Positions 5,726 through 50,826 are shown, numbered from the stretch's first letter. The stretch is 64,000 nucleotides of DNA from a bacterium (GCA_043812655.1 JBDRLW010000009.1:120-64119), one strand, 5' to 3'. The notes: a model not told the origin generated them from the sequence alone. Translations and numbers: made by a program.

Positions 5726-5746
5726 CTAATATGTTATAATTTAACT

Positions 5747-11912: not shown

Positions 11913-12380
11913 TCATAGCCTTCTTCCCTCTCCCACTCTATTTTCGGTAACGGTTACAAAGCCCGTTTCGGTGTTGGGCAACGGTTTACGTGTTTTAAAA
12001 TTTGTCCAAGCATTTCCCAGTTTGTAAAGTTGTCTGCCTGATTTGTCGTAAATATCGATCAAGTCATCGCAAAGTTTAACCGCCGCGTAAACAGGATAAA
12101 TATCTCTTGCCTGGCTCAAACTGACTACCATTTCATTGCATTCCGCCATTGCATCATCAATATATTTTTGGAAACCAGCCCTCTGGTGGCGCTTAGCATA
12201 ACCTTCCGCGATTAATCTTGGGATCGCTTTACATGCTCGGCTCAATTGATCGGTTAAATCATCTCTTTCATTAGCCGGCAATTTAAGTACAATTTCTTTC
12301 ATAACAATTAACATTGCTTCATACGTATTACGATATACTTCCAAATCCCTAAAGCTTGTAATTCTCTTTTTTTCTTCCAT
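11913..12380 (-). CDS. four-helix-bundle protein (23S rRNA intervening-sequence protein / Avd family)
   Basis: FRDLEVYRNTYEAMLIVMKEI...LTDQLSRACKAIPRLIAEGYAKR...FQKYIDDAMAECNEMVVSL is typical of the family. The ATG at 12380 is preceded by AGGAGGAAG; the track ORF extends to 12437 through flanking repeat DNA. Confidence 0.8.
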   Translation of the reverse strand: MEEKKRITSFRDLEVYRNTYEAMLIVMKEIVLKLPANERDDLTDQLSRACKAIPRLIAEGYAKRHQRAGFQKYIDDAMAECNEMVVSLSQARDIYPVYAAVKLCDDLIDIYDKSGRQLYKLGNAWTNFKTRKPLPNTETGFVTVTENRVGEGRRL

Positions 12381-12493
12381 TAACTTCCTCCTAATCAATC
12401 GGTAACGGTTACGATGCCAGTTTCGTCTTTCGGTCACGGTTACGTTACCCTAACCCTAACCGATACTGGTATCGTCACCCTAACCGTTGATCC

Positions 12494-15400
12494 CTATTTC
12501 AACACCGCAACCTTCCCTCTTCCCCCAACACTCCGATCCCCTATTCTCGCTGTCACTTCAAAGGGATAGATCCCGTTCATCACCATGTCCCCTCGCCCAT
12601 TCTTCCCATCCCACTCAACATCATTATATTTATTCCAGATCGATGAGCCTTCACCGTTAGTTGTGCCGTCAATTTCATTCACTAGCGAGCCGGTAATATC
12701 GTAAATGCGGATCCTGACATCGCTAGCGTCGGTCGAGAGCCGATATCTTATTTTCGTCTTCTCTTTATTGGGGTTAAACGGATTGGGGTAATTGGTAACA
12801 TCCGACAAAGTTAGATCTGGTTTAACGGTAAACGACCACGTTTCTGACGTCGCCGCTTCGTTAGTCGAGAGGGCTGTAACTTTCCAGTAGTAAGTGTCCC
12901 TATCAAGTCCAGGATCAAATTCGTGGATGGAGTAGTTGTAGTAATAGAGAGTTGAATCAGCTTTGTCTTGTGAGCCGCTGTTCGGCGATTTAGTAAAGCT
13001 TTGGTTAGCGATCGAGAAAGTATCATTCTTGGCAACATCTATCCTATATTCAGTGGCGTTTCCTTTCTTATGCTTCCATTCAAAGGTGGGACGGACAGAC
13101 TGAACATTATCGGTTTTGTCTGTTGGGGCAACAAGGGTTGGAGCTTCAAAGGTAATAGAATGAGTGATCGGGCTTCTTGTAACTGCGTATGCCGTAGTAA
13201 AATCATAGACACCATCAACATCACCACCGGAAGGCCGCCAACAACCACTACCATCTAACCAATGAAAGGCAAGTCTTTCTCCCGTCATTGGTTTAAATAT
13301 CCCCATCCACTCCCCAGCACCACCTGACATTAATGCAATTTCAGCCTTTCCATCTCCCGTAAAATCACCAGCCGTGATACAAAAGAATTCATTTGACGGG
13401 TCTTGAAAACTAAAACTATTTATTAATGTCCCTGAGTTATTGTATGTATACACATAATTAACCCAACCAACGTATATGGTTGCAATAGGCCCATCCAGGG
13501 CGATTTCATCTATACCGTCTCCGTTAAAATCCCCACAAGTTATTGTTTTAACATTTCTTGGGGTGTTCCAATTCCTATAAGAATTGTTTCCCGCGCTGCC
13601 ATCGGCAATCGAACTGGGTTTAAACAGATAAACAGCCAAGCTGTTTTGGATGGTCATAGCTAACTCATCCATGCCATCCCCATCAAGGTCGCCGGCTGCT
13701 ATTTCATTACCATATCCCTTAAAACTTTTGACTAGAGTCCCTGATGGAAGGCTATAAATATAAACCCAGGAATTCGCGGGATTAACCACGGCCAACTCCT
13801 CAACACCATCGCCGTTAAAATCACCGCCGGTTAAACGAGCGTCTTCAGGCACATCAAAAGAATAAAGCGGGCTGGCAGTCCGATTTCTTGGGTCATAGAT
13901 CACGACATCATCGTTGGCTTGATTCCTTAAAGCCACAAACATCGGCTTCTCATTCCCCTGATAATCGACTAGAGTGGTAAATAACATCCAGTCAACACTT
14001 GTATTCCAGTAACTGGCAGAATTAAACGATTTCCCGTCTTTAGCTACCTTAATAACCCTGACATACTCGTTCGCTCCAGAATTATCATCGATCATTATCG
14101 CTTCATCCCGACTTTTCACCCTTACTTTCTTGGTCGCGGTCAAAGTTGCGACATTTAACAACGCGTCATTCACAGTGGCCAAAGCCGAATATCTCCCAAC
14201 AGGAACAAACGATCCAGAATTGTTTTTTAGGTCCCAATTAACTTCAGCGCCAACATTTGGGAAACTCCTGACCACATTTCCACCGGCATCCCTAATCTCT
14301 AAATCTATCCTGGTCGCACCTGAAACATTGCAATTAATCGTAGTAGAATTATTAATCCCGTCTGGGAAAGCAATATTACGGCTAAAAGCTATGTCGTTAA
14401 TAGTCGGCGGCGTATTATCAACCGTAAAAGAATATGTCGAGCTGGTGCTTGAATTGCCAACCGCATCAACGGCCACAATGTAATAATTATGGCTCCCCTC
14501 ACTTATATTCGCCCCCGGACTCCATGTCCACGAAAGATTAATTGATGGCGAAGAGGTATATTTTAAACCTCCATCAACATAGACTGAAAAGGTTGAAGAT
14601 TCATTGGCGCTGGCAGAAAATGTTATTGAATCATAATTCCCATCCGCATTTCCAGGGCTAATAGCATTTGGGGAAACAGAAACACTAGAAATCACAGGAG
14701 AATCAAGGTCTATTAAAACCGAACCCGAAGACCCCCAATTACCAATATTGCCAGCCACGTCTTTAGCTTTAATGGAGGCATAATAAGTTCCGCTGCTTAA
14801 ATCTCTGTTGGTTGTCCAGGCGTTGACGTTGCCAACCCATGTTTCACTAACAATATTCCCTCCACCACTGGTCGTTCCAATTTGTATATAGTACCCATCT
14901 ATTCCTGAAAGAGAATCAGAACTCGGCGCCCAGCTCCAGGTCGGGCGCCTATTTGTTGTTGGGGTGGTTGTTGATGGGGTATAAACTGAAGGTCTAATTG
15001 GATCCCGACAATAAGTTTTAGAATATGTCGTTTGGTTGCCGGCATTATCCCAAACCCTGACAAACAATGTCCGGGGTCCCGTGCTCGCATGCGTAGTTGA
15101 CGCCGATGTCGCGGTATTACAACCAGCGGGATCATTCGTCGGCCAATTATCCCAACTCCATTTAAACCCTCGATAATCAGAGCCACCTGTGTCAGATAAG
15201 CTTATGGTTATCTGGTTATCCGAAATATACCAGGCATCCGCCGCTTGGCCGCTAAAAGTCGCCGTTGGCGGAGTGTAATCACGTTTATAGATCTTTGAAG
15301 TTTGGGTCAGGTTGCCCGCACTGTCCCAGGCATTAACATATAATGTACGCGGCCCTTGGCTAGAGTGAGTCGTCGTGCCGGTAGCAGAAGTATTGCAACC

Positions 15401-18400
15401 AGCTGGATCAGTCGAGGGCGGATCATCCCAAGACCATTTAAAGCCTTGATAGCTATAATTATCAGATAAACTGACTGTTATATTATTGTCCGCGCTGTAC
15501 CAAACTTCCTCGGCTTGGCCGCCAAGGACGACCAAGGGCCCGGTCATATCAACTACAACCTCTTTCGTTTGAATATCCGCGATGTTGCCTGCCTGATCAG
15601 TTGAGGAAAGTTTAAAAGTATAAGGCCCATCAACCACGGAATCTCCAGTCCCGTCCCAGACTTGCAAATACGTACCATTATTTTCCCAGCCGCCAAAAAG
15701 TGTTTTAGTTAGATTCGCTCCCTTATAAACCGCAACCGTAACCTCGCAGCTATTCCCGTTATCAGCCACTTCGTAAGTCAGAGTCGTTGTTTTAATGCTT
15801 GAGTTAGTATTTCCCGGCGAGAAATAATACGGGGCGGCAGAAAGATTAGAGATCACCGGCTTTTCGTTATCCACCACCACCGTCCGCTTTAATATATTGT
15901 TAACGGCTGAATTGCCGGCAAAGTCTTTAACATCAACTACCATGTAATACGTGCCATCAGTGACAAACTGGCCAGCATCATTTTTACCATCCCAGAATTC
16001 CCAGGTTAAAGTCCCCGACTGCGCGTCAGCATTAGCTACTACAGTACGGATCAAATTAGCCATGGCGCTATCGCTGTAAACCTTTATTGAATATTTACCA
16101 ACCTTTTTAGTGTCGCCGGCAACCGCTTGCGCTTCGATCTTCTCTGCTGGCTTAGTAATGGTCGGATTGCTAGCTAGATCGATCATAAAATAATACTTGG
16201 CCTGTTTTTGGGCTGGGTCTAAACTATTACCATTAGGAGAAATATAATGAGGATCTGGATTATTCCCTCCGGGATTAACATGAGCGGCATCATATTCAAA
16301 CTGCTCCGGTTCTCGCAAGGTCAGGATATTATCTTGGATCCAAACCGTCCCTCCCCACTTCTTGAGCGTTAAGTTATTAGCCCGGTCTCGCCCTTCAACA
16401 ATAAAGGCATATTTCCCTGGCATTGCATAGCTGTCATTATTATCGTCATATGTTGCCAAGTTATTATCGATCTTGCCATCCCAAGCCACTGTTTGGTTCC
16501 CCTCTTGCCAAACATCGTTAATTAAGACTTTAATTAAATTATCATTGTTAAAATCTGTTTTAGTGTAGGTTGCCTGGTTATCAGGCACTTTGTAGACTTT
16601 AACTGTAACCTTTGACTTTTCCGCTAAATTATAATAAAAGGTCGTTGATCTTGGTTTGTCTGTCCCATCAGGGTTGGCGTTGGTTGAGAAGCTTTGTGGA
16701 TTGGAAATATATGCACCTACGATTTGAGGCTCGGCGATCGCTATTGTCGGATTAACCAGATCAATAACGAAACTTTCGCTTGAGGTTGAAGTTTCAACTG
16801 TCCCTTCATTCAGCGCGAAGTCGAAACCGGAAATCGTAATATTCGCGTTGCCGTTGGCGTCGGTATTTTTTATGACATATTTATACTCATAAGCTTCCGT
16901 CGTTTGTCCCGTAAACCGGCGACTGAACATCGCGGTTTCCTCATTTACCTTAACGCTAGGATTAAACTTAAGCTGTTCTGAAGAATCAAAGGTAATTAAT
17001 ACTTCCGCCCCCTCTTTGGCAAATTTCGTAAATTCAGGGTTGTCGCCTATTTCGGATTTGATATTATTGAAAACTGGTTTCACTGTATCCACCTCAAAGG
17101 AGGTAGTAAATAAAGCCGGATTTAGTGCCAGGTCAGCCACCTCAATTGAAACCTGCGCCAGTCCATCGTAGCCAGGCACAACATCGTACTTAGCTTCACA
17201 TAGACCAGAGACTGAAGACCACAGACCAGTGACAGGGATCAATTGAGGTGAGGCACCGTTTTGAGTAACGTAGACCTTGGGTGCTTCCTTCAGCGGCTCA
17301 CTGACATTAAATTTAATGCTGGCTTGGCCATTTACCGCTGGGACTGCCGCTGGGTTGGGAGCAACCGATAGATTGCTGACGACGGGATTAGTTTTGTCGA
17401 TCGTTACTATCTTTGTCTTCAAAACCGGATTAAAGGCCAGATCCCTCGCTTTAACCGAAACAGCCGCTGGCCCTTCGGCATCTTCAGTTAAAACAATATA
17501 ACTATACTCATAATTATTCCCTTCAGCCGTGATCAGCCCGGCTGTCTTTAATGTACCATCGCTCATCGTGACTTCAACCGTCGGTGTTTCCGCAAGTGGT
17601 TCAGGGAAATTCAATTTTACTCTCATTTCAGCGTCAAGTTTCGCGTAAGCCGTGTTGATCGAAAAATCGGTCGGTTCCGGCTGGCTGTAATCAACCTCGA
17701 GCGGAATGATCTTTGGAATAGCTGTTGTCCCCAGCGCGTCTTGGGCGGAGATTTTGACGTAATAGGAGCCAGGATTAAGTGGCCCGCCTGCCGGCGAGGC
17801 AGGTAAGTCGTAAGAATTAAGTCCGTTATATTCATAAACATAATTTCCGGCAGAATTATTAAAAATCTTGCTCCAAACCGCTTCGGCGCTTGAATTTATC
17901 ACTTCGATCTTAACCAAGGCTTCGCCCGTTATATAAAAAGTCGGATAGTTAATAGAATAATTAAAAATCACTTTATCTTTCGCCCCATCGCCATTGGGTG
18001 AAAAGATCGGAATATCGGTTGAAATGTCGACCGTCGGACGGGTGGAGATAGCGTGAATCGTGAGTCGTGATTCGTGAATCGTTTCCAGCATATCTTGGAT
18101 GGAGATCACGCATTCATATCGTCCATCGTCTATCGTCTTTCGTCCATCATCTTTCCCATCCCAATAGAAAGAATATGAACCAGCGGTTTGTTGTTCGTTG
18201 TCCACCAAGCGTTTCACTGTCGCTCCAGCCGCGTTAAGAATGGTCAAAGAAACTTTATACGGCCCTACTCCGCCCGCGAGGTTGTAGCTTATCCGCGTCT
18301 GGTCGCTCAAGCTGTCGGCGTTTGGCGTGAACGGATTGGGCGCCGCATTACTGCTGACCTGGAATTGGTTGGGGACTACTGAGAAAGTTTCGGTTGTTAC

Positions 18401-21400
18401 TTCTGACAGGTTAAAGGCGCGATCGGTAGCGACGATCTTAAAGTATGAGGAACCTGAGAATGAAATTCTCGGTTCCTCATAAACAATTGTATATTCACCC
18501 GCATTTTGCGCTTCAGCGGTTACCAGAGTCGAAATTAAATTACCAGCCAGATCAAACACTGAAACTTCGACCGACGAGTTTTCCGGCAGCTGATATAAGA
18601 GCTTAGCTTGTTTCTTAACATAATCAACCACCAGCGGCTTCGTCGTAATGACCGGCGGAACGTTATCGACTAAGACAGTATTCGTAACTGTCGCGGGATT
18701 GGTGCCATCCGGATCAATTGCTTTAATTTGGAATTCATACGACCCGTCAAAAACACGATATTTGTTGCCAACAGCTGTTGAACCGGTATATTCGGAATTG
18801 AAATCCCCATACCATCTTAAGGCATGTTCACCTTTAGTTTGGACTTCTTCATTGACCAGGATTTTTATCGCCTTCCCTCCCTCGCCAATGATCGCCGCGC
18901 TGACCTTCACATTATCCCTGGCCAGATAATATTTGATCTCGGTAAAACTATTATTCGGATTGACCGGCGCGAAGGGATCAGGTTCGGCGTAGGCGTAAGG
19001 GACAAGAGTTGGTTCGCGGTCGACGACCAGTGGATCGTGAAGCGTGAAACGTGAAACGTTGCCGACATTGTCTACCACGGTCGCTTCTACCGAGTAAGCC
19101 CCCCCAATGAGCTCGTTGCGTGAGCCGCGGCCATCCCATGTCCAGGAACCGAGAGACGAAGAGACGAAAGGACGAAGGGACGATTTATCCGTCGGATAAT
19201 AAAATCCTTCCGTCGGCCCTTCGTGGCTCCTAAACTCTCTCCTCGTCTCTCGTCCATCGTCCTTCGTCACTATCGTTGTTACATACGCCGGCTCGCTAAA
19301 CTTGTACCAAATCTTAGTTGTATCTTTGACACCATCATCATTGGGAGTAAAGGGATTGGGATCGGCATTGAAGCCAATGATTGTTGGCGGTGTGGTATCA
19401 ACAACAGTTTGGCTGATTACATTATTACTAATGTTTCCAGCCTCGTCGATCGCGTAGACCGTGGTAGAGTAAGCTCCGTCGGCCAGGTGTTCATTTAATG
19501 ACTTACTAGTCACAAGACTCCAATCTCCAGTTAGAGTATCTCGGCGATATAGATTAAACCCATCTTTTATCCAAGATAATTCAACTTCTTTGTTGGCTTC
19601 AGCTGAAATCACCTCATCCACCACTCGACTCGCTTCGCTCGCTCGTGGTCCCCCTTCTCCACTTCGTGGAGAAGGTCGAATATTAAAATAGATTTTCCCC
19701 TTCTCCGAACTCCTAACTCCATACTCCACACTATCGTACTTCCCGTCGCCGTTGGGGGAAAAGGCAAAGAGATTTTGGCTAGCTTCGACAGACGGAGCGA
19801 TGGTATCTTTGACGATGGTTACATCACTAATCGTCCTGATATTCTTATCTTTTTCTAAATGGGAAGAGACAAATATATAGTTATTCCCCTCTTGCAATAA
19901 GTTAACATTCTCAAACTTAAAGTTGCCGGCAGCCGCCTCCGCCGTCAACCGCGCGAAATACGGTTCTTCCTTCGCGGGATCTGGAGGCAAATTCTCTGTT
20001 TTAACATATAAGCTAAGAACCGATCCTGGTTCAGCTGTGCCATAAATCGTCACCTTATCTTTATTGGTTATATAGTTATCCGCAAAAACCATTGGGGCAG
20101 AAAGGGAAAATTTGCCGGGCAACAGCGCGTAAGTAGAAAAATGGTCGAGCGGAGCGTAAAAGGCGTATTGGTGTTCACCGTTATTGATTTCCACTTCCTG
20201 CTTATTCCCAGAAACGATCTGCAGATCACCGCCAGCAGTCACTTGATGGATATTCATCGGCAAACCTAAGTTTGTCCCTGGATTTGGCAATGGTTTATTC
20301 ATATCCCAAAGCCCTAGTTTTGGATCGGCTAGGTCGTCAAACGTGTAAACAAAACGCAAAGTCGGACGCTGGTCTACTCCTTCTAATGTACTTGCCCCGA
20401 GCGAAGTCGAGGGGCTGACCGTGAATTTCCAGGGGGAAGGCTTGATCTCCACTATTGGTCCGGATGTCATGATGATCGGCCGGTTACGAATAAATATCTC
20501 GCTCATCGTCACTGGTGTAATCGTCACCAATTTATCTTGGCCAAACGCCCCTTTAGGAAAACTTAGTTCCGCCCGTTTATAAGTACTGTAAACCTGGCCG
20601 CCTGTAGCATCCCTAACCAGCGTTCCGATCGAAATATCTTGGGTAGAAATAAAACTACCTGACCGGAGTAAAACCGTATACTGTCCATTTAACCGTGAAA
20701 CATTCCACCAGGCTAAGCGCCCGTTTTTACCAGTATCGGATCGTTCAATGGCCTGCCAGGTCTTACCGTCAAAATACGATAATTCGTACGGTTCTGACGC
20801 TGATCCTTCGATCTCAACATAGCGAGATTCAGAAGCATCGAGTTTAAGTTTGAGGGTAAAAGTATCGTCCAGCCGCCGGCTATTTTTATTGATCTTAACC
20901 AGCGCGAGATCCCTATTATCACCGCCGGTCTTATCTTTAATATTTATTTCCCAGCTATCAATCACTACATTAGGATTATCAATGGGGGTTACCCCATCAT
21001 TTTTAAACGGATCATATTTTAAAAATGCATATTTTAAAGCCGAGGCTGATTGGTAATCAGGGCTGACTTTGTAAGAGTTAGCTATTTTGATTTCCCGCTT
21101 GCCTAAAAACTCGTTCTCATTAAAATCCAAAGCCATACTATTTATCTTACCGGCCAAAGGCTGTAAAGTATTATCATCACCTGTTGTCCAGGCAACTCCT
21201 ATTGTGTCCAAATCCTCGGCTCCATACGCCGTATTCTTGTCACCGCTCGCGGGATTTATTTTAATGCCAGGAGTATTACTGGCAACCTGATAATTAACAT
21301 CACTAACATAATTTGGAACTTTTAAAAACTGGCCAAAGCTTTGGCTCGCGCTCCAAATACTCTTCCCAACTCCTTTATCAAACCTCACCTGGCCAGTTCC

Positions 21401-24400
21401 AGTCCGGCTATTATTTGCATCAGCTAACCGCGCCCTAACTTCATCCGCGTCTAGTTCCCACCAGGTGCCGGCAGGTGAAGTTCCCGTATATTTTTGGGGA
21501 TTGGCTAAAAGCTCCGCTTTCTTTGCTTTCCAAATATCATCATATTTATTCTGGTCGGTTAGCGGCCAGCTAAATTCAAACGGCGACGGCGGGTTGCCGC
21601 CTGACGCGTAAGTAAGATTTGTATTAATTTTAATGGTTGAGGAGCTAGTCTCGGTAAAATCCCCGCTTTCCGGCTTAGTGATCGGGATAAACTCAAAATA
21701 CTCACCAGAAAGATAGGAGTCGTAACCCACAGAAGAGGCAAGGGAATCTTTATAGCCGATAAGATTTGATTTTTGCGCTTCACTATTTAGCGCCGCAACC
21801 AGATCACCCCAATTTTTCTTCCCTTGCAGATCGGTTTTTAAATCTTTGTATGGCGCGCTAGGTTTCGCCGTCGGATCAGTAAAAAATAATTTACCTGGGA
21901 AACCTAATCCTTTATTAATGTCAGTTAAATACATGGAAAAGTCTTTTGTCCGTTCACTTTCCGGCGTCTTCGCACTTATAAATCCAAACCAAGGGACAAA
22001 GCGGTTAGTAAGGCGGGAATAAGCGATCGGGGCTTCTAATTGATAAGTTAAGGTAAAATACGGGCTTCTCCCAAAGCTTCGGCCATCTGTCCCCCAAGTG
22101 GGCGTAACTTTAAAAATTCCTTTTTCAGATATTTCCGGTGTGCCAACAAGATATTTTGGAACACTCGAGGACAAAGTAGCTATTTGACTCGCTCCTAAAT
22201 AAGAGGATGCGACTGCTGGGTCATCCGTCGTCGTTGACACCTGAAATACGCCGTTAATAAGCGCTGTTATTGGATAATTGACCTTCCCTAAAATACTACT
22301 GACAGCGGGATTAGCTTCAATCGTAACAACATCCAACACCCAGGTCAGGTCCCCGGCCGGGCGAAAAACCAACGTCAAGTCAATCTTATCTACATGGCCA
22401 TCCGGTTCTCCAACCCCGCGCAAAGCCGCATCGTGAAATTGAAGAACATCATATATCTGTTTTACTTCGATGCTCGGTATATTACTAGTTAAACTAAAAG
22501 TTTGAACGTGTTGTTTGGTTGTCCTTTGGCCTTCTCCCTTCCACCCCTGCAGAAAAACATAGTTATATTTTGTATAATAAACCGTAGCCAGCACCTCAAC
22601 ATTGATATCAACCTGCTTAAATCCCCGATGCATCAGCCCGGCAAATGGGACAAAAGGATAAGCGGTAATTAATTGTTTACCGGTGGCCGTTAAAGTATAG
22701 CTAAAATCTTTTGGCGGATGGTACCAGCCAAGCCCCTTGGCTTCAAAATAGTAAGGCGAATCGCCCTGCGCTATCCCATTTTCCCCGATCGGTGAAAGAG
22801 AAACTATTTTGGCGTCGTTCTTAAATTCTGCCAGAGTAATATTATCAATTTCTTTGGTTTCACTCGCTGACCCATCTTTGGCCGCCACATTTAATTTGAT
22901 CTTATACGTTCCACCTGGCACAACCAAGCCGCTGTCAGGATCCGGATAATTTCCCTTCCAGGCAAAAGTTAATTGATTGTTAGGGTTAGTCGTCCCCAGA
23001 ACTTCTGTTCCATTTAAGAGAGTCGCAACATAGTCGCCGTTTTGTTTTTGGACCGTAGCCGTAACAATTGAGTCTTTAGACACGTTGTAAAAGACTGATA
23101 CCCTATCTATTCCGCCTAAAGCGCTGAATTTACGATCGAGCGGCTCAACTTTTAAATTTGAAAGTTCAAATGGTGTTTTGACTTGGACAATGGCTTCATC
23201 TGTTGCCATCCCCACCCCATCGGCCCCTTCCGCTCGCACCCTGACAATATAAGTTCCATTATCAACGTAAGCGCCGGTATCATATTGGCCGTTCCACTCT
23301 AAAGAGTTCGGAGTATTGAGTTCGGAGTTAGGAGTTGGTGAGGTTTTCCCCATGCTTGTCACATCAACTAATTTCTGGCTGGCGGCGTCGATAATGATCG
23401 GTAAATAAGTTTGGGAATATTTGGAAATTCCCAGATAAACATTGTCAGCGGTGATCGATGGCGAGGTTGGGTCTTCGTCAATCTTTGGCGTGATCATTAT
23501 TTGACCGGATGAAATCTTAAAGTCTATTCCGCTCTCTCCCCCAGCCATTGTTTTATCCCAACTTATTAGAGCGTTAGTTGTAGACGGAGAACAATTAACG
23601 GCATTAATATTTTTCAGCTCTCCCCCGATCGCGATAATGCTACCGGTGAATTTGTGGTTAGAACCATTTGACGACCAGCGGAGATGGTAGCCGGCATCAT
23701 CACTCCAGATAAAGTAACCAAGGTCTGCACCAGGTTTGTAGTCCGGTTTGCCGATAAACGGAGCACCAGCAATGTTGGGAAAATATTTGGAGAAAACGAC
23801 CGCCTCATCCACCACTCGACTCGCTTCGCTTGCTCGTGGTCCCCCTTCTCCACTGCGTGGAGAGGGTCGGGAAGGCTTGATAATTTCTATATAAATATTG
23901 GCTGGTTTAATGCTGTTGATAAAACCGAGTGGCAGTTTAACAGAATCGTCACCTTTAAATTCGACCGATGATAGAACAGGATTTAACTTAACATAGGGAT
24001 TTTGAAGTGATGAAGTTGTAAAGCTATCATTATTTACCTTGACCGTTCTCGTCGCGCTAAGTGTTTCACCGTTCTCCTCGTTAACTTCAACTTTAATCGT
24101 GTAATCGCCGTTCGCAAGATTGTTCGTGTACAAATATGCTAATGTCGAATTATTTTGCAGTGGCCTGATGGAAATATTTTTGGGCCCTTGAGGGTCGCGA
24201 TTGGTTTGGGGGACTTCAATGAAATCTGACTGCCAGCCATCAACCCTCACCCCCGTCCCCTCTCCCAAAGGGAGAGGGGTGGAGCTTGTTCCTTTCCTAT
24301 AATATACTCGATAATCCTTAAATGGCTTATCATTTGTCCAGTCGGGATCTATGGCGGTACCGCGGATGGAGATCGTCCCAGCCACTTCCGTATTATCATC

Positions 24401-27400
24401 CAAGGGATATGAGATGACCGGCGCTATCCCATCTTTAACGCATGAGGCGTAAGCGATCCCAACGTTCCCATAATCATCTTCGGCAATGATCTGGAAACGA
24501 TAAGCCCCCTTAGGTTGGTCGCTCCCATTCCAAGCGACATTATTAGCTGCTGTGTTGGAAGCTGGCGCCGAGGGGATCGTCTCCACTAATTGGCCAGTAT
24601 TGGAATTATAGATCTTTATTTTTACGCTTTTTGCGTCTGTAAGGCTGTAAGAAAGATTAGTTTTGTAGGAATTATTCCCTATATTTGATAACACATAAGG
24701 ATTGGTAATTTGCCCGAATATTGAGGGCGGCGTCCGATCGATCCGGACAGCTTCAAGCGTTCGCGGCAGGCTTTCATTACCCGCGTCGTCCCTGGCGATC
24801 ACTTCTACCCGATGGAGGCCATCTTCGGGGCCTTTAGTGAACATGTCGTTGTATTTCCAGGTGTAGGAAGCGAGATAGTTAGGAGTTGGGAGTTCGAAGT
24901 CCCTCGACAGTGCTCGGGGTGGCTGGGATGGCGAGCTTGTCGAGCCATTCGGAGCCGGAAGGGATTGGGCAAGATACGCTGTTGTTGAATTAGTTGTTAG
25001 ATTATTCAGTTTAATAATAACCGTCGATTTTTCGTTTACCTTCGCGGTTAATCCTAGCTCCGTAGTATTGGAAGTCATTGGATTGGGTGAAACGTCAACA
25101 CCTAAAACTGTTGGCGGCGTAGCGTCGATCGTGATCTGCGTCTGGCTGGTTACGGAGTTTCCAGCTAGGTCGGAGGCGGTAATTTTAATTATGTAATTAC
25201 CGTCTACGACCCTCACCCCTGTCCCCTCTTCGCCACTCCAGTTGAAAAAGTTTTCCCCTTTAGAAATCGAGTCGGTGGTGGCGATAGTAGTTACAAGTTG
25301 GTCTTCGGTCTGTGGTCTTTGGTCTGTAGTTTTGTAGAGTTCGCAACGGACAGAGGCGAGGTTTGGCGAGGCTTCGTCGGAAGAAGTGTATTTGATAATC
25401 GCAGGCGCCCTGGGAGAGTATGGTTGCAACGGCTGGATCGCCAGAGTTGGCGCTTGGGTGTCGATAATAACATTAATAACCGCTTGCGAGACGCCAACGT
25501 TACTATTAGCGGTCACAACCAACGAATATTCGCCATCGGGCAATGTTTCTTTTGGTGTATATTCAAAATGAAGATGTTTATCATAATCTCCGCCGCTGAT
25601 CGTCGCCTTCACGTCCGAGGTAACATCAACCTCTTCAGTCCCATTGATCATTTTAGCAGTTGTTATTTCCAGCCCGTTTATCGCGTCTTCGCTGTACGTG
25701 GCTAACCCAAAATCACCGCTAAATGCTGGCTTATTATTTTTAGTATACGTTCCAGGGAGCGGCTTAAGGTTGGAGGCTACAAATGGGATGGTGTTAAGTA
25801 TTATCTTTAAAAGCTGGTTGGAGGTATAACCGACTTTGTTTTTTCCACGGAAAGCAAGGACGTTCTGGCCTTCTGCCAGCTTCAAGCCATCGACACTAAA
25901 ATGTCCCCATTCATCTATATTGGTAATGTTTTTCCAGGCGGCAAAGTTTTCCGAATACTGGAAATACTGCATTTTCTTCGGCATAAAGTCGCGCAGGACG
26001 CCTTCTATTTTAGTTGGAGCCTCTTTAACAGTAATTGCAGTAATCTGCTGGTTTTTCCCGTCGATCACTACCGGTAAAGCGGTCGGATCTTTTCCGGCAA
26101 AAGTATAGCCTTTAACCTCTACGGTATGGGTTGTGCTCAAGGTCGTTATTTTCCCATCCGCTTCTTTTGTTTGGTTAGTCAATAAAACTAATGCTTGCGG
26201 CTTAACAGAGGAGGTCGTTGATGAACCAACGTCTGGCTTATCGAATAAGGCTTGTTCTAATAAGCTGGGATCGCCATCAAGGACTATTTTGTCTTTCATG
26301 GTGATATGAGCAAACATAAATCCCAAGGCTCCATCCTCCTGATCAACGGTAGCAAAATTAGCTACCGCCGCGACAGCTATTCCAATATAAGTAACCGCTC
26401 TGACCGGAGCAGGTAAAAATTGGAACGCAATATCGAGGCCTGCAGGGATGATATGTTCCAATGCCCCCAATTGCGGGCTTCTCATCGTATAGGTAAATCG
26501 TTTTGCATTGGCTAAATTAGCAATCCCTTCCCCTAATTGACTGGATCTCTCTCCCACCAAATCACCGTCACCGAAAAACGGATAACCGGTTAACATTGTA
26601 AAATATGATCCCATAAATCTGCCTTCAAAATTGTCTAGTTCGGGATTAGCAAAAACATTGGCTATACTCGCCATCATTAAAGATATGGGGTTCAATCCCA
26701 CTAAAAATGTTCCCGCCTGATTTAATCTCCAGGGAACGGGCACACCTCTTCCGGCAATTAGACGCTGTTTAACCGGTGTATAACTTCCGAAATCCGCAGA
26801 ATTTAAATTTCGTATAAAATCACTATCCGGCAGTAAATCCATAAGAGCAGGTGACTTATAACGATTCATAAAAGCACGCACCCCGGCATTAACGCTTGAC
26901 GAAACAAGACTATACGCGCCGACAACAGCAAAATATTTGGACAACTCGTCATTGCCATTCATCGCGTAATAAACAGATAACCCAATTCCTCCCAGAAAGA
27001 CTACTCCCTCGTAGAAATGTATTTCCTGTGTATTTCTGGCATAAGAAGCCCCACCAGCTCCCGTGTGCGGAGTATCTATCGTAATAAATTTTTCAATATC
27101 ATCTTGATAATACCGATTCCCCCGCTGGTCTTTACCATACATATATGACATGACTGCGAGCCCCCCCATGGAGTGCCCAAGAACTATGAATTTTTTGGGG
27201 ATCTCGTTGTCAGGGCCTGTTGAATCAATTGGAAATCTTTTTGGTTTACTCAAACTACCTGGCCCATAATCATGGAACCATATTTTAAAATCTTCTTTTG
27301 CTTGTTCAAGCCAGCTATTACCAGTTCCATTTTGACCATTATCTAATCGTTTAGTAATTTCCCATGGTTTTCTTTGGTTCCCATTATCTCCGATATCATC

Positions 27401-27706
27401 ATTTTTTTTACTTACTGCCTCTGGGTTATTATATGTTCGATCACCAAATTCCCAACCCTCTTTTTCGATATTGAGAAATTGATTGGAAAACTCATATCTA
27501 TAAACATATCCATTAAGACCTGCTTCTTTTGTTAAATAATCATACACCTTATCAAAGCACTTATGGTCATCGCCAATACCATGAACAAGTATTATTAAAT
27601 GATTTTTTGCATAGGCAATATCATTATTATCAATCGCACCGCAGGCAATTGAAGCCGAATAAATCAAAACCAGTATTAAAAATACAGAAAATCGAAAACC
27701 CTTCAT
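12494..27706 (-). CDS. giant secreted multidomain surface protein (5,070 aa)
   Basis: Uninterrupted 15,213-nt ORF with an N-terminal signal peptide, an alpha/beta-hydrolase head, many Ig/FlgD-Ig-like modules, FG-GAP repeats and a C-terminal sorting-type domain. Its ATG overlaps the stop of the upstream gene (ATGA). Confidence 0.85.
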   Translation of the reverse strand: MKGFRFSVFLILVLIYSASIACGAIDNNDIAYAKNHLIILVHGIGDDHKCFDKVYDYLTKEAGLNGYVYRYEFSNQFLNIEKEGWEFGDRTYNNPEAVSKKNDDIGDNGNQRKPWEITKRLDNGQNGTGNSWLEQAKEDFKIWFHDYGPGSLSKPKRFPIDSTGPDNEIPKKFIVLGHSMGGLAVMSYMYGKDQRGNRYYQDDIEKFITIDTPHTGAGGASYARNTQEIHFYEGVVFLGGIGLSVYYAMNGNDELSKYFAVVGAYSLVSSSVNAGVRAFMNRYKSPALMDLLPDSDFIRNLNSADFGSYTPVKQRLIAGRGVPVPWRLNQAGTFLVGLNPISLMMASIANVFANPELDNFEGRFMGSYFTMLTGYPFFGDGDLVGERSSQLGEGIANLANAKRFTYTMRSPQLGALEHIIPAGLDIAFQFLPAPVRAVTYIGIAVAAVANFATVDQEDGALGFMFAHITMKDKIVLDGDPSLLEQALFDKPDVGSSTTSSVKPQALVLLTNQTKEADGKITTLSTTHTVEVKGYTFAGKDPTALPVVIDGKNQQITAITVKEAPTKIEGVLRDFMPKKMQYFQYSENFAAWKNITNIDEWGHFSVDGLKLAEGQNVLAFRGKNKVGYTSNQLLKIILNTIPFVASNLKPLPGTYTKNNKPAFSGDFGLATYSEDAINGLEITTAKMINGTEEVDVTSDVKATISGGDYDKHLHFEYTPKETLPDGEYSLVVTANSNVGVSQAVINVIIDTQAPTLAIQPLQPYSPRAPAIIKYTSSDEASPNLASVRCELYKTTDQRPQTEDQLVTTIATTDSISKGENFFNWSGEEGTGVRVVDGNYIIKITASDLAGNSVTSQTQITIDATPPTVLGVDVSPNPMTSNTTELGLTAKVNEKSTVIIKLNNLTTNSTTAYLAQSLPAPNGSTSSPSQPPRALSRDFELPTPNYLASYTWKYNDMFTKGPEDGLHRVEVIARDDAGNESLPRTLEAVRIDRTPPSIFGQITNPYVLSNIGNNSYKTNLSYSLTDAKSVKIKIYNSNTGQLVETIPSAPASNTAANNVAWNGSDQPKGAYRFQIIAEDDYGNVGIAYASCVKDGIAPVISYPLDDNTEVAGTISIRGTAIDPDWTNDKPFKDYRVYYRKGTSSTPLPLGEGTGVRVDGWQSDFIEVPQTNRDPQGPKNISIRPLQNNSTLAYLYTNNLANGDYTIKVEVNEENGETLSATRTVKVNNDSFTTSSLQNPYVKLNPVLSSVEFKGDDSVKLPLGFINSIKPANIYIEIIKPSRPSPRSGEGGPRASEASRVVDEAVVFSKYFPNIAGAPFIGKPDYKPGADLGYFIWSDDAGYHLRWSSNGSNHKFTGSIIAIGGELKNINAVNCSPSTTNALISWDKTMAGGESGIDFKISSGQIMITPKIDEDPTSPSITADNVYLGISKYSQTYLPIIIDAASQKLVDVTSMGKTSPTPNSELNTPNSLEWNGQYDTGAYVDNGTYIVRVRAEGADGVGMATDEAIVQVKTPFELSNLKVEPLDRKFSALGGIDRVSVFYNVSKDSIVTATVQKQNGDYVATLLNGTEVLGTTNPNNQLTFAWKGNYPDPDSGLVVPGGTYKIKLNVAAKDGSASETKEIDNITLAEFKNDAKIVSLSPIGENGIAQGDSPYYFEAKGLGWYHPPKDFSYTLTATGKQLITAYPFVPFAGLMHRGFKQVDINVEVLATVYYTKYNYVFLQGWKGEGQRTTKQHVQTFSLTSNIPSIEVKQIYDVLQFHDAALRGVGEPDGHVDKIDLTLVFRPAGDLTWVLDVVTIEANPAVSSILGKVNYPITALINGVFQVSTTTDDPAVASSYLGASQIATLSSSVPKYLVGTPEISEKGIFKVTPTWGTDGRSFGRSPYFTLTYQLEAPIAYSRLTNRFVPWFGFISAKTPESERTKDFSMYLTDINKGLGFPGKLFFTDPTAKPSAPYKDLKTDLQGKKNWGDLVAALNSEAQKSNLIGYKDSLASSVGYDSYLSGEYFEFIPITKPESGDFTETSSSTIKINTNLTYASGGNPPSPFEFSWPLTDQNKYDDIWKAKKAELLANPQKYTGTSPAGTWWELDADEVRARLADANNSRTGTGQVRFDKGVGKSIWSASQSFGQFLKVPNYVSDVNYQVASNTPGIKINPASGDKNTAYGAEDLDTIGVAWTTGDDNTLQPLAGKINSMALDFNENEFLGKREIKIANSYKVSPDYQSASALKYAFLKYDPFKNDGVTPIDNPNVVIDSWEINIKDKTGGDNRDLALVKINKNSRRLDDTFTLKLKLDASESRYVEIEGSASEPYELSYFDGKTWQAIERSDTGKNGRLAWWNVSRLNGQYTVLLRSGSFISTQDISIGTLVRDATGGQVYSTYKRAELSFPKGAFGQDKLVTITPVTMSEIFIRNRPIIMTSGPIVEIKPSPWKFTVSPSTSLGASTLEGVDQRPTLRFVYTFDDLADPKLGLWDMNKPLPNPGTNLGLPMNIHQVTAGGDLQIVSGNKQEVEINNGEHQYAFYAPLDHFSTYALLPGKFSLSAPMVFADNYITNKDKVTIYGTAEPGSVLSLYVKTENLPPDPAKEEPYFARLTAEAAAGNFKFENVNLLQEGNNYIFVSSHLEKDKNIRTISDVTIVKDTIAPSVEASQNLFAFSPNGDGKYDSVEYGVRSSEKGKIYFNIRPSPRSGEGGPRASEASRVVDEVISAEANKEVELSWIKDGFNLYRRDTLTGDWSLVTSKSLNEHLADGAYSTTVYAIDEAGNISNNVISQTVVDTTPPTIIGFNADPNPFTPNDDGVKDTTKIWYKFSEPAYVTTIVTKDDGRETRREFRSHEGPTEGFYYPTDKSSLRPFVSSSLGSWTWDGRGSRNELIGGAYSVEATVVDNVGNVSRFTLHDPLVVDREPTLVPYAYAEPDPFAPVNPNNSFTEIKYYLARDNVKVSAAIIGEGGKAIKILVNEEVQTKGEHALRWYGDFNSEYTGSTAVGNKYRVFDGSYEFQIKAIDPDGTNPATVTNTVLVDNVPPVITTKPLVVDYVKKQAKLLYQLPENSSVEVSVFDLAGNLISTLVTAEAQNAGEYTIVYEEPRISFSGSSYFKIVATDRAFNLSEVTTETFSVVPNQFQVSSNAAPNPFTPNADSLSDQTRISYNLAGGVGPYKVSLTILNAAGATVKRLVDNEQQTAGSYSFYWDGKDDGRKTIDDGRYECVISIQDMLETIHESRLTIHAISTRPTVDISTDIPIFSPNGDGAKDKVIFNYSINYPTFYITGEALVKIEVINSSAEAVWSKIFNNSAGNYVYEYNGLNSYDLPASPAGGPLNPGSYYVKISAQDALGTTAIPKIIPLEVDYSQPEPTDFSINTAYAKLDAEMRVKLNFPEPLAETPTVEVTMSDGTLKTAGLITAEGNNYEYSYIVLTEDAEGPAAVSVKARDLAFNPVLKTKIVTIDKTNPVVSNLSVAPNPAAVPAVNGQASIKFNVSEPLKEAPKVYVTQNGASPQLIPVTGLWSSVSGLCEAKYDVVPGYDGLAQVSIEVADLALNPALFTTSFEVDTVKPVFNNIKSEIGDNPEFTKFAKEGAEVLITFDSSEQLKFNPSVKVNEETAMFSRRFTGQTTEAYEYKYVIKNTDANGNANITISGFDFALNEGTVETSTSSESFVIDLVNPTIAIAEPQIVGAYISNPQSFSTNANPDGTDKPRSTTFYYNLAEKSKVTVKVYKVPDNQATYTKTDFNNDNLIKVLINDVWQEGNQTVAWDGKIDNNLATYDDNNDSYAMPGKYAFIVEGRDRANNLTLKKWGGTVWIQDNILTLREPEQFEYDAAHVNPGGNNPDPHYISPNGNSLDPAQKQAKYYFMIDLASNPTITKPAEKIEAQAVAGDTKKVGKYSIKVYSDSAMANLIRTVVANADAQSGTLTWEFWDGKNDAGQFVTDGTYYMVVDVKDFAGNSAVNNILKRTVVVDNEKPVISNLSAAPYYFSPGNTNSSIKTTTLTYEVADNGNSCEVTVAVYKGANLTKTLFGGWENNGTYLQVWDGTGDSVVDGPYTFKLSSTDQAGNIADIQTKEVVVDMTGPLVVLGGQAEEVWYSADNNITVSLSDNYSYQGFKWSWDDPPSTDPAGCNTSATGTTTHSSQGPRTLYVNAWDSAGNLTQTSKIYKRDYTPPTATFSGQAADAWYISDNQITISLSDTGGSDYRGFKWSWDNWPTNDPAGCNTATSASTTHASTGPRTLFVRVWDNAGNQTTYSKTYCRDPIRPSVYTPSTTTPTTNRRPTWSWAPSSDSLSGIDGYYIQIGTTSGGGNIVSETWVGNVNAWTTNRDLSSGTYYASIKAKDVAGNIGNWGSSGSVLIDLDSPVISSVSVSPNAISPGNADGNYDSITFSASANESSTFSVYVDGGLKYTSSPSINLSWTWSPGANISEGSHNYYIVAVDAVGNSSTSSTYSFTVDNTPPTINDIAFSRNIAFPDGINNSTTINCNVSGATRIDLEIRDAGGNVVRSFPNVGAEVNWDLKNNSGSFVPVGRYSALATVNDALLNVATLTATKKVRVKSRDEAIMIDDNSGANEYVRVIKVAKDGKSFNSASYWNTSVDWMLFTTLVDYQGNEKPMFVALRNQANDDVVIYDPRNRTASPLYSFDVPEDARLTGGDFNGDGVEELAVVNPANSWVYIYSLPSGTLVKSFKGYGNEIAAGDLDGDGMDELAMTIQNSLAVYLFKPSSIADGSAGNNSYRNWNTPRNVKTITCGDFNGDGIDEIALDGPIATIYVGWVNYVYTYNNSGTLINSFSFQDPSNEFFCITAGDFTGDGKAEIALMSGGAGEWMGIFKPMTGERLAFHWLDGSGCWRPSGGDVDGVYDFTTAYAVTRSPITHSITFEAPTLVAPTDKTDNVQSVRPTFEWKHKKGNATEYRIDVAKNDTFSIANQSFTKSPNSGSQDKADSTLYYYNYSIHEFDPGLDRDTYYWKVTALSTNEAATSETWSFTVKPDLTLSDVTNYPNPFNPNKEKTKIRYRLSTDASDVRIRIYDITGSLVNEIDGTTNGEGSSIWNKYNDVEWDGKNGRGDMVMNGIYPFEVTARIGDRSVGGRGKVAVLK
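12497..12811 (-). other. C-terminal FlgD-Ig / T9SS-type-A-like sorting domain of the giant protein
   Basis: LSDVTNYPNPFNPNKEKTKIRYRL...VRIRIYDITGSLVNEI...VEWDGKNGRGDMVMNGIYPFEVTA...GKVAVLK-stop. Confidence 0.6.
13200..13900 (-). other. FG-GAP/VCBS-type repeat region of the giant protein (probable beta-propeller)
   Basis: GGDFNGDGVEELAVV, AGDLDGDGMDELAM, CGDFNGDGIDEIAL, AGDFTGDGKAEIAL and SGGDVDGVYDF. Confidence 0.7.
18052..18083. repeat. heptamer array CGTGAAT-type inside the giant CDS
   Basis: cgtgaatcgtgagtcgtgattcgtgaatcgtt. It shares the 19-mer cgtgaatcgtgagtcgtga with 11231-11249 and is translated as ...SRLTIHAIS. Confidence 0.85.
19612..19678. repeat. 67-nt hairpin-containing repeat, copy A (in frame in the giant CDS)
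   Basis: cctcatccaccactcgactcgcttcgctcgctcgtggtcccccttctccacttcgtggagaaggtcg. It contains a 10-bp perfect stem, ccttctccac/gtggagaagg, and encodes RPSPRSGEGGPRASEASRVVDE. Confidence 0.9.
23803..23869. repeat. 67-nt hairpin-containing repeat, copy B (in frame in the giant CDS)
   Basis: Same unit with 3 substitutions; it encodes the same 22-aa peptide. Confidence 0.9.
26807..27604 (-). other. alpha/beta-hydrolase (lipase/esterase-like) domain of the giant protein
   Basis: HLIILVHGIGDD at aa 36-47 and the nucleophile elbow GHSMGG at aa 177-182 (nt 27161-27178). Confidence 0.7.
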
Positions 27707-28560
27707 TTCAGTTGTTTTATATTGCTCCCATCTATATTAATTAGCCATACGCCATTACTTCTGAATTGACCATAAACTATTTTATTTGCTCCAGGATTGA
27801 TTTTAGGTAAATATCCTCTAAAATTCGATATTTTAGCGTGAAACTGAGGAGTTGCTACATTCACGTCAATATATCCATATTCATTTCCAGCGCTCCCATA
27901 AATTTCATTTGTTGCGATTGAAGAAACGGTCGCACTACTTATGCTCTGGTCTCCCAAGTTGGTTCTTCCTGTTCCATCAATATTTATAATAGCCGTTGGA
28001 GTATACAAACCATCTAAATATTCAAAAACAATTTTAGTCCCATACTTCCATGTAACAGCCTCTCCACTTGTTGCAATATTCAAATTTCCTGTGCCATCAA
28101 TATTTATCACATTAATTCCGCCGCGGTTTTTCAAATACACTAACCTTGCCTCATCCGGTCCCCAATCAAGAGAACTAATACTTTCAGTCGTTGGAGAAAA
28201 CTCATAAACCTTAGAATTATCAGCTCTTTTATAAATTGAAATAGTTTCATCACTGATTAAAGCAGCATAAGTTCCTTTGGGCGAAAAATATGGATAGCTG
28301 CTATATGGCAGAATGGCTTCATTGTCCCCATCAGTATCCATGGTCACATAAGAATAATCTGTTCCAAGGGTTATTGTTCCCATCGGTTCCTTACGATAAT
28401 GGGTGACAGCCTTCTGACAGTAAATTAATCCCTCCGGCGTCCAATTTGGATATTCGTAGCTTGTTTCATCATAGTAACTTGTTCCACACCCCCCCATCAT
28501 CATCATTGTTAACCCCAACACCATCAGGCCTAGGATCGGAAGAAACTGCTTCGTTTTCAT
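27703..28560 (-). CDS. lipoprotein with TolB-like (PD40/WD40-like) beta-propeller repeats
   Basis: Signal peptide plus lipobox MMMMGGC. Repeated SP(K/D)G...INIDGTG / INIDGSN motifs are present. ATGA overlaps occur at both ends (28557-28560 and 27703-27706). Confidence 0.6.
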   Translation of the reverse strand: MKTKQFLPILGLMVLGLTMMMMGGCGTSYYDETSYEYPNWTPEGLIYCQKAVTHYRKEPMGTITLGTDYSYVTMDTDGDNEAILPYSSYPYFSPKGTYAALISDETISIYKRADNSKVYEFSPTTESISSLDWGPDEARLVYLKNRGGINVINIDGTGNLNIATSGEAVTWKYGTKIVFEYLDGLYTPTAIINIDGTGRTNLGDQSISSATVSSIATNEIYGSAGNEYGYIDVNVATPQFHAKISNFRGYLPKINPGANKIVYGQFRSNGVWLINIDGSNIKQLK

Positions 28561-29039
28561 CTTAAACTCCTTTCTTTTTTAATGTTACCTGAAGTTACAT
28601 GAGGTTGCGAGATGTTGCGGGAGGTTGATTTGATGCTCCCCCTTGGATTTTTCCAGGTTCCATCACGTTCCATCTTACTAAGAGAAACTACATATCTTCC
28701 TGCCATATAATCAGCGCTCTGAAATAATACCGCTAGCTTTTCAAACTCTTCCTTTGTTATTAAACCATCTTCCAAGCAGTCCTCAATATCACCTCCTAAT
28801 TCTTCGAGCGAACCCAAACTTATGTTGATACTGTGTCTAAATTCGCCAGCAGACCCCTTTTTATACCCCTCTCTAATGTTTTGTTTGGCCGATCTTGCGG
28901 CATCCCTCATCTGTGAGACAAGCCTTAAATGCGTTTTCTTGAACCGCTCTGAGCAGTTATAAACCAATCGTCGAATTTCACAAATATTTTGGTAAAACTT
29001 CAATTTCTCGTACGCCGCTTCCTTTTTCAGTAACTTCAT
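28557..29039 (-). CDS. four-helix-bundle protein (23S rRNA IVS / Avd family), second copy
   Basis: YEKLKFYQNICEIRRLVY...LVSQMRDAARSAKQNIREGYKKGSAGEFRHSINISLGSLEELGGDIEDC. The start codon region and the last ~35 codons are built from flanking word repeats. Confidence 0.75.
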   Translation of the reverse strand: MKLLKKEAAYEKLKFYQNICEIRRLVYNCSERFKKTHLRLVSQMRDAARSAKQNIREGYKKGSAGEFRHSINISLGSLEELGGDIEDCLEDGLITKEEFEKLAVLFQSADYMAGRYVVSLSKMERDGTWKNPRGSIKSTSRNISQPHVTSGNIKKERSLR

Positions 29040-29087
29040 GTAACTTCAATTAACCTAATGTAACTTTTTGTAACATGATTTGTTTTT

Positions 29088-30077: not shown

Positions 30078-30151
30078 AATTCACTTCCTGTCCCTCACTT
30101 TAGCCAAAGATTAAACCAGCAAATACTTGAGAAGCAAAAAGAATAATAGAC

Positions 30152-50642: not shown

Positions 50643-50690
50643 TTTCAAACTGCGCCTGGCGGGATTTTCCCGATGCTCGCTTCGCTCGAT

Positions 50691-50788: not shown

Positions 50789-50826
50789 TCCCGATGGTCA
50801 TTATAATATGCTTATTATGGAATCAT

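Follow-up and report, generated by a model that had tools for sequence, protein, structure and literature searches.

Intergenic PF05635 genes with complementary tandem-repeat arms beside a giant surface-protein gene: probable IVS-like cassettes

Background

Small genes of the PF05635 family, which encode four-helix-bundle (4HB) proteins, have been noticed in intervening sequences (IVSs) of rRNA, in cas operons and beside the reverse transcriptases of diversity-generating retroelements (DGRs), without a unifying picture. Outside DGRs, the family is among the largest bacterial families that lack a known function. In the 23S rRNA IVS of Coxiella burnetii, a 28-bp terminal stem, cut by RNase III at mid-stem, encloses an S23p open reading frame (ORF) that is reported to be probably not expressed (PMC4990558). 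Members also occur within 16S and 23S rRNA insertions of the candidate phyla radiation (CPR; PMC11270868), and 23S_rRNA_IVP genes in CRISPR-cas operons, for example between cmr3 and cmr2, have been read as functionally linked to cas nucleases (PMC3936711). The DGR protein Avd is a pentameric barrel that grips the DGR RNA, in a ribonucleoprotein whose RNA has pairing segments up- and downstream of a central segment (bioRxiv 10.1101/2023.10.23.563531). This report concerns two PF05635 genes, 4HB#1 and 4HB#2, in 64,000 nucleotides of DNA from a bacterium (GCA_043812655.1 JBDRLW010000009.1:120-64119), a stretch called the window below. Loci of other organisms carry handles beginning with L.

The two genes flank a lipoprotein gene and a giant gene:

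28557-29039, minus strand: 4HB#2 ORF, 160 aa; PF05635 core at about residues 1-133, the rest being read-through of the 3' arm
27703-28560, minus strand: TolB-like beta-propeller lipoprotein gene, 285 aa; its start overlaps the 4HB#2 stop (ATGA)
12494-27706, minus strand: giant gene, 5070 aa, with domain profile matches
11913-12380, minus strand: 4HB#1 ORF, 155 aa from the ATG at 12380; core at about residues 1-132, the tail being read-through of the 3' arm

Both belong to ORF-plus-arms units that share one architecture and recur in unrelated contexts, with arms specific to each 4HB subfamily, conserved protein and arm cores, and ORF-less derivatives. The reading favored here, with somewhat more confidence than doubt, is that 4HB#1 and 4HB#2 are IVS-like selfish cassettes co-transcribed with their host operon. 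Confidence is high for the cassette architecture and for the lack of specificity for giant genes, and moderate to low for processing by RNase III and for binding of the arms by the protein.

Two divergent members of the four-helix-bundle family

An earlier note on this DNA, made from the sequence alone, had placed both small ORFs in the four-helix-bundle (IVS/Avd) family as divergent copies, and both assignments are borne out. The ORFs score 66.7 and 52.7 bits against PF05635 (curated cut-off 33.8) and 56.1 and 41.3 bits against TIGR02436 (cut-off 24), and both match PDB 2GSC by sequence (E=1e-3 for 4HB#1). Fold comparison by model covers 4HB#2, and 4HB#1 was compared by sequence. The AlphaFold model of 4HB#2 (pLDDT 87) is a four-helix bundle that Foldseek matches to 2GSC (template modeling (TM) score up to 0.92, target-normalised), 2RLD and Avd 4DWL. 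The two proteins have no detectable pairwise similarity (blastp E ~7), and there is no third 4HB copy in the window.

The likeness to Avd raises the question of whether the 4HBs are Avd components, or remnants, of a DGR acting on the giant surface protein to diversify it. Surface proteins are frequent targets of DGRs, the fold matches both Avd 4DWL (TM ~0.8, target-normalised) and DGR ribonucleoprotein structures, and among related 4HBs two exceed the 40-bit cut-off of the bAvd Pfam model (L007 at 41.1 bits and L105 at 46.0) while L009 falls below it (29.8). However, the 4HBs of the window match PF05635 rather than PF22296. A profile scan of the annotated ORFs of ~1-37.6 kb, apart from a few such as 3178-4070 and 5741-6782, found no reverse transcriptase domain, and a whole-window search of direct repeats of at least 40 nt found no template/variable pair differing at adenines. 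The only giant-gene repeats of this length are FG-GAP/Ig-domain repeats (65-73%) and a 67-nt hairpin element (three mismatches), and they are not adenine-specific. A DGR is very improbable, because the scanned ORFs hold no reverse transcriptase and no template/variable repeats are present.

Relatives at 65-85% identity number hundreds to thousands for each 4HB, in metagenome-assembled genomes labeled Omnitrophota, Edwardsbacteria and WOR-1. The neighboring lipoprotein is far less conserved, with a best match of 69% and others soon down to 40%. Members of the 4HB#1 family share 76% of amino acids and 50% of third codon positions, dN/dS is ~0.07, and the protein is under strong purifying selection. 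Viral contigs scanned with both 4HB proteins yielded no relatives and thus no hint of carriage by phages.

The C-terminal 22-27 residues of both 4HBs are translated 3' arm and are unconserved in homologs. In the AlphaFold model of 4HB#2 this tail is disordered, and an L093 homolog that is 82% identical to 4HB#2 terminates ahead of the arm. The ATGA overlap that couples 4HB#2 to the lipoprotein gene thus exists because the 4HB#2 ORF reads through its own 3' arm.

Complementary repeat arms

The arms of 4HB#2 are periodic:

29026-29076, minus strand: 4HB#2 5' arm, ~5 units of GTTACnnnnn (period 10; Tandem Repeats Finder (TRF) gives period 10, 5.0 copies)
28582-28626, minus strand: 4HB#2 3' arm, GTAACnnnnn units complementary to the 5' arm, from an inverted-repeat search

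The start codon of 4HB#2 (29037-29039) lies within its 5' arm. Over 45 nt (29032-29076 / 28582-28626) the arms are 71% complementary, rising to 87% in a 23-nt core, and they rank second in length among local inverted repeats of the window. The motif GTTAC-N5-GTTAC occurs three times in the window, always flanking 4HB#2, where 0.06 occurrences are expected. In the minimum free energy (MFE) fold of the whole 546-nt RNA, 29054-29032 pairs with 28606-28584 and leaves the ORF in the loop, and the energy of the arm duplex is well below that of shuffled sequences (z=-4.7). Since a period of 10 nt is about one helical turn, the GTTAC/GTAAC motifs would share one face of the duplex.

The arms of 4HB#1 consist of GGTAAC/GGTTA hexamers surrounding a ACGAAGCCCGTATCG / ACGAAACGGGCATCG core, and they are arranged differently:

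12476-12494, minus strand: outer 5' stem half of the 4HB#1 cassette, pairing with 11976-11992
12399-12478, minus strand: ORF-less arm pair (solo hairpin) of the 4HB#1 arm type, folding at -35 kcal/mol
11944-11992, minus strand: 4HB#1 3' arm, which includes a ACCGAAACGGGCTTTG core (11956-11971) and GTAACCGTTACCG

The order is therefore the stop codon of the giant gene, the ORF-less arm pair, a ribosome-binding site, the ORF and the 3' arm. After the giant gene's stop, the solo hairpin presents a 5'-type core (12460-12475, centre CCAGT) and then a 3'-type core (12411-12426, centre ACTGG). The outer stem half shares the last base of that stop codon (12494). The MFE fold of a 596-nt RNA contains 15 long-range pairs, and a 15-bp outer stem encloses the 4HB#1 unit. 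The longest frame of 4HB#1 runs from 11913 to 12437, but its true ATG is at 12380, preceded by AGGAGG; homologs likewise open with MEEKKRIT.

The same units in other organisms

ORF-plus-arms units of this kind are found in ~90 loci of other organisms. A metagenome scan with 4HB#1 gave 80 loci, whose flanks display a conserved 5' arm (GGTAACGAAGCCCGTATCGGTTA, amid GGTTA/GGTAAC hexamers) and a conserved 3' arm (GACGAAACGGGCATCGTAACCGT), with both cores present in 30 distinct loci. The arms pair in a single register, with 70% of cells paired compared to 25-51% elsewhere, and the duplex has the pattern 3 bp, A.A, 6 bp, A.A, 3 bp, in which the A.A mismatches are conserved.

Arm sequence is specific to the 4HB subfamily. 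GTTAC/GTAAC arms accompany 4HB#2-family genes in L093, L096, L100 and L102. The subfamily of L009 and L104 has GGAATCGAGG / CCTTGATGCC arms, and that of L007 and L105 has CAGTG / CACTG heptamers, each complementary between the two sides. When 72 4HB genes were compared with 375 control genes of the same loci, median flank pairing was -51.6 versus -31.1 kcal/mol (Mann-Whitney p=4e-22).

These arms could be the primary entity: REP-like (repetitive extragenic palindromic) hairpins for which the 4HB ORFs are loop cargo, or encode a trans-acting factor that makes or maintains the hairpins. ORF-less arm pairs exist for both the 4HB#1 and the 4HB#2 arm types, an ORF-less leader hairpin differs by a 50-nt apex indel between the close relatives L104 and L009, the leader in L093 retains remnants of three arm types, and repeat-armed hairpins and heptamer arrays also occur inside reading frames of the window. 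In contrast, arm type tracks 4HB subfamily across unrelated genomes, which argues that ORF and arms are inherited as a unit. Cassettes with an ORF (~68) also outnumber the 11-22 solo pairs, in a comparison where the 22 solo matches include both-strand double counts and the loci were sampled through the ORF. The primacy of hairpins is accordingly given a low probability, and the combined unit of ORF and arms is preferred.

Some control genes with very stable flank pairing were considered as hidden 4HBs, but these are ordinary genes or an IS200-like transposase. The transposase gene (Y1; L029 19150-19760) is bounded by an inverted-repeat pair of its own, GGGACGTTCCCC / GGGGACACCC, that bears no relation to the 4HB arms, which removes it as a candidate mobiliser. 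A 4HB#1-family cassette and a 2745-aa gene lie ~9 kb upstream of it. The arms match no Rfam family, and the window as a whole gives only tRNAs. In a literature search of incomplete coverage, no account was found of intergenic PF05635 cassettes with subfamily-specific complementary tandem-repeat arms.

Genomic context

The earlier note had suggested that the two 4HBs are either selfish cassettes that target gene boundaries or accessory factors for the giant transcript. In the accessory view, the proteins or the terminal stems would stabilise, process or tune the 15-kb transcript of the lipoprotein/giant operon. Cassettes do sit at both ends of the lipoprotein-giant pair in the window, with no terminators between the genes. 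However, as a general rule an accessory role for giant transcripts fails: 3 of 134 neighbors of 4HB#1-family genes encode at least 1000 aa, compared with 5 of 393 in the background (p=0.43). Members of this family are spaced 70-85 nt from the ordinary co-oriented genes on either side, and the co-orientation of their neighbors (81%, background 78%) is not in excess. One 4HB#2-family copy resides between hisB and hisH in a histidine operon and another among hypothetical genes of an Omnitrophota genome. In a WOR-1 genome the 4HB context is one of Peptidase_S74/YadA-head proteins.

The earlier note had also proposed looking, as counter-evidence, for syntenic relatives that carry the giant gene without a 4HB, and several were found. 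The lipoprotein-giant pair, or a version with a shorter PGAP1-head gene, occurs with no 4HB at all in L001, L002, L006, L103, L106 and L107. These include the relatives with the nearest TolB-like proteins, L103 (69% identity) and L001 (61%).

The position of 4HBs with respect to gene class is nevertheless not without pattern. Giant genes are not enriched, but 4 of the 16 TolB-like copies examined have a 4HB directly upstream (lineages not fully independent), compared to 2 of 146 other junctions of the same loci (p≈9e-4), so in this clade the position is not random. The four cases are the window, the L093 lineage, L009/L104 and the second TolB-like copy of L105. This excess speaks in favor of accessory factors dedicated to the operon. 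Against it, the four upstream 4HBs represent three subfamilies with unrelated arms, which indicates repeated acquisition rather than one conserved partner. In L093 the 4HB is 82% identical to 4HB#2, and the lipoprotein merely 30%. In L009/L104 a sigma-70-like promoter (TTGCAA, 18 nt, GATAAT) between the 4HB and the TolB-like gene leaves the 4HB outside that transcription unit. Because the closest relatives lack a 4HB and the same subfamilies appear in the his operon and other unrelated contexts, dedicated accessory factors are considered unlikely. Selfish cassettes at gene boundaries, in comparison, fit subfamilies with their own arms, recurrence between unrelated co-directional genes, ORF-less pairs and relatives without a 4HB.

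The leader of the lipoprotein operon looks like a recurrent landing site in Margulisbacteria/Saganbacteria that accepts passengers. In L093 (9800-10000), the leader of the 4HB#2-like gene contains half-arms in a row of the GGGATCGAGG, CAGTG and GTTAC types, which suggests that cassettes were inserted or replaced here one after another. In the window, the leader of 4HB#2 contains a second gene and a long repeat:

29107-29252, minus strand: leader region 5' of 4HB#2, a 146-nt direct repeat (82%) of 30144-30289, which is upstream of the KilA-N gene
29262-30077, minus strand: KilA-N gene, by profile match

This leader seems to have taken up a second passenger in the KilA-N gene.

The surface-protein module

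On the minus strand, 4HB#1 is followed by these genes:

10877-11902, minus strand: PorV/PorQ-family outer-membrane protein gene (NF033709, 106.5 bits, cut-off 90)
9497-10825, minus strand: methyltransferase gene
6766-9474, minus strand: histidine kinase gene

The gene order and shared minus orientation of 4HB#2, the lipoprotein gene, the giant gene and 4HB#1 that had been described agree with the ORF coordinates. These also give both 4-nt ATGA overlaps, and ATGA is read at 28557-28560. The bracketing by the 4HBs is confirmed with one qualification: both flank the lipoprotein-giant pair, and 4HB#1 is inside the border of the module, between the giant gene and the PorV/PorQ-family gene, which starts 10 nt past the 4HB#1 stop. 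As a finding, the bracketing is only partly meaningful, and the interest lies in the underlying element.

The head of the giant protein is a PGAP1-like hydrolase domain and its C-terminal domain is of the FlgD_ig/T9SS-tail-like kind; the protein also contains many Ig-like/FlgD_ig domains and FG-GAP repeats. FlgD_ig is matched strongly, while the tail models stay below their cut-offs (Por_Secre_tail 24.1 versus 27, TIGR04183 20.4 versus 23). The PorV-like protein is a probable partner of the giant cargo gene. In the window these two genes are parted by 590 nt of 4HB#1 cassette, whereas paralogous cargo/PorV-type pairs elsewhere have gaps of at most 20 nt (L001, L093). The lipobox Cys25 of the TolB-like protein is unchanged across 27 homologs. 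Homologs of this lipoprotein place the host among Saganbacteria/Margulisbacteria (WOR-1). An exact-sequence look-up found no identical lipoprotein on record.

In several relatives the TolB-like lipoprotein gene is duplicated within the locus (L105 189-4409, L001 10001-12121, L002 10001-14237). The gene that follows each copy ranges from 677 aa to >5000 aa and has the same PGAP1-like head throughout. L104 4910-6824 and L009 8502-10393 correspond, with 81-86% DNA identity that extends through the upstream genes and the 4HB and ~400 nt into the TolB-like gene, beyond which there is no detectable DNA similarity. This loss of similarity implies that the remainder of the lipoprotein gene and the giant gene were exchanged. 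A recombination breakpoint of the surface module at the cassette was considered and rejected, as the breakpoint is inside the TolB-like gene.

Proposed mechanism and its weak points

The element would consist of a 130-aa PF05635 ORF, its own ribosome-binding site and mutually complementary 5' and 3' arms of short tandem repeats with a period of 6-10. 4HB#1 and 4HB#2 would be two independent insertions or long-resident copies, belonging to different subfamilies of this one element type. Promoter and terminator scans reveal no terminator-like or good promoter-like sites between the module genes above shuffle expectation, which suggests that the cassettes are transcribed with the host operon. A shared transcript would then comprise 4HB#2, the lipoprotein gene, the giant gene, 4HB#1 and the PorV-like gene. 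Within it, the arms are predicted to pair into an imperfect 20-45-bp stem with the 4HB ORF in the loop. By analogy with the 23S rRNA IVS, RNase III may cut this stem, freeing the 4HB message and leaving the adjacent cistrons intact. Intact cistrons would account for the tolerance of insertions at gene junctions. By analogy with Avd, the periodic arms of a cassette are probable binding sites of its 4HB protein, and the cassettes are probably selfish in nature.

Several observations weigh against this scheme. Co-transcription, stem formation and cutting by RNase III are predictions from sequence. The conserved A.A mismatches of the 4HB#1-type duplex could hinder RNase III, and are also compatible with arms that act singly as protein-binding sites and do not form the two halves of an RNA stem. 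The 4HB#1 of the window has no canonical 5' arm beside its start and its arm duplex is less distinct from shuffles (z=-2.3); the L100 copy of the 4HB#2 family likewise has no 5' arm. The arm-core identity of 85% is inflated because the 30 loci behind it were picked by motif match. Arm covariation within the 4HB#1 family does not attain significance (the observed pairing is matched by 240 of 1000 partner shuffles) because the arm cores are nearly invariant, so that pairing is argued instead from the single register, from the complementary arms of other subfamilies and from the comparison with control genes. Synonymous sites are saturated and thus do not support recent horizontal transfer. No transposase, integrase or target-site duplication was found with the cassettes, and their mobility is inferred from distribution alone. 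Finally, the excess upstream of TolB-like genes would also fit a selected function at that operon.

A bolder proposal is that PF05635 4HB genes with periodic complementary arms form an unrecognised class of mobile or self-maintaining element, of which the rRNA IVS is a special case that happened to be noticed first. The 4HB would bind the arm duplex, as RNA or DNA, and help the hairpin to be copied or inserted at gene junctions, with a polymerase or reverse transcriptase possibly supplied in trans. ORF-less armed hairpins, including those in the frames of the giant gene, would be non-autonomous derivatives. We regard this as a long shot compared with co-transcribed, IVS-like selfish cassettes.

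Other repeats in the window

Additional repeats are present in the window, many of them in the giant gene. A 67-nt repeat, 96% identical between 19612-19678 and 23803-23869, holds the hairpin CCTTCTCCAC-nnnn-GTGGAGAAGG and is translated in frame as PSPRSGEGGPRASEASRVVDE. At the same site the homologs L008, L001 and L093 lack the segment, and the insert of L009 is another one, of GEGGP type. A small palindromic element seems to have entered a loop here without breaking the frame. Another hairpin repeat, CCCCTCTCCC-nnn-GGGAGAGGGG, is intergenic at 4222-4262 and 5642-5729 and recurs, in part, in the giant gene at 24243-24296 and 25209-25229. There it is in frame and encodes GEGTGVRV, and homologs lack these residues or differ at the site. 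A strong hairpin at 19120-19268 of the giant gene, with GACGAnG / CTTCGTC repeat arms, is also wholly in frame. As the encoded stretch is nearly equal in length in the homologs L093 and L009, these repeats seem to have replaced sequence rather than simply been added.

Arrays of ~4 tandem heptamers lie at 4967, 11229, 18052, 18118, 19036, 19250, 23304, 25298, 35380, 47069, 57354, 59793 and 63952, mostly inside reading frames. The PorV-like gene (11231-11263) and the giant gene (18052-18084) share a 33-nt (CGTGAAT)x4 block at 94% identity. The arrays recall the short tandemly repeated repetitive (STRR) sequences of cyanobacteria, to which Margulisbacteria are the sister group.

The longest local inverted repeat of the window (36956-37086; 48-nt arms, 75%) is an ORF-less armed hairpin built from short tandem units, located at the junction and start of a TPR gene (36964-37632). 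Elsewhere, a perfect 100-nt tandem duplication (50689-50788 / 50825-50924) includes part of a tRNA (50891-50964, minus strand) and may be the remnant of an integration event.

Comparison with known systems

An ORF with complementary arms at operon junctions offers a concrete, testable anatomy for many PF05635 members. It also advises caution with labels assigned to 4HB genes through guilt by association, such as cas-linked or giant-gene-linked. The giant surface-protein operons of uncultivated bacteria have a leader that repeatedly collects such passengers.

The closest described counterparts are the 23S rRNA IVSs of Leptospira and Coxiella burnetii, which share with the cassettes the same ORF family, a length of ~430-550 nt, a terminal complementary stem and a sporadic distribution that has been attributed to a selfish element spreading horizontally (PMC4990558). 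In contrast to IVSs, the cassettes lie between protein-coding genes, and Rfam detects rRNA neither in the window nor in any of 40 short related loci. Their arms are tandem 6-10-nt units that are subfamily-specific, and the 4HB#1-type duplex has its conserved A.A mismatches. Unlike the Coxiella ORF, the cassette ORFs have ribosome-binding sites and are under strong purifying selection. The cassettes are not strict IVS members because they do not occupy the rRNA helix that defines the class.

Avd (4DWL; 8UB7 in the ribonucleoprotein) has the four-helix-bundle fold of 4HB#2 and belongs to the same superfamily, but sequence identity is ~9%. The segment enclosed by pairing here is the protein's own ORF, and the locus has no template/variable repeats and no reverse transcriptase among the annotated ORFs of ~1-37.6 kb. 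The 23S_rRNA_IVP genes of cas operons are, like the cassettes, small PF05635 genes between co-oriented operon genes, but no flanking arms are described for them, whereas the genes studied here have conserved arms and occur in unrelated operons (PMC3936711). The same placement in unrelated operons, with conserved arms, argues for a passenger element. Integron cassettes differ in having a single attC-type palindrome 3' of the ORF instead of repeats on both sides that pair together, and a coarse check of annotated neighbors found no integron integrase.

Short dispersed repeats that form hairpins or tandem arrays at gene junctions, sometimes in frame, include REP elements and bacterial interspersed mosaic elements (BIMEs), miniature inverted-repeat transposable elements (MITEs), Rickettsia palindromic elements and the STRR heptamers of cyanobacteria. 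They contain no ORF and, in cases of known mechanism, depend on a separate transposase for movement. It is the ORF-less arm pairs that resemble these elements. The complete cassettes have no associated transposase and, unlike REP- or MITE-type elements, carry a conserved protein gene inside the hairpin.

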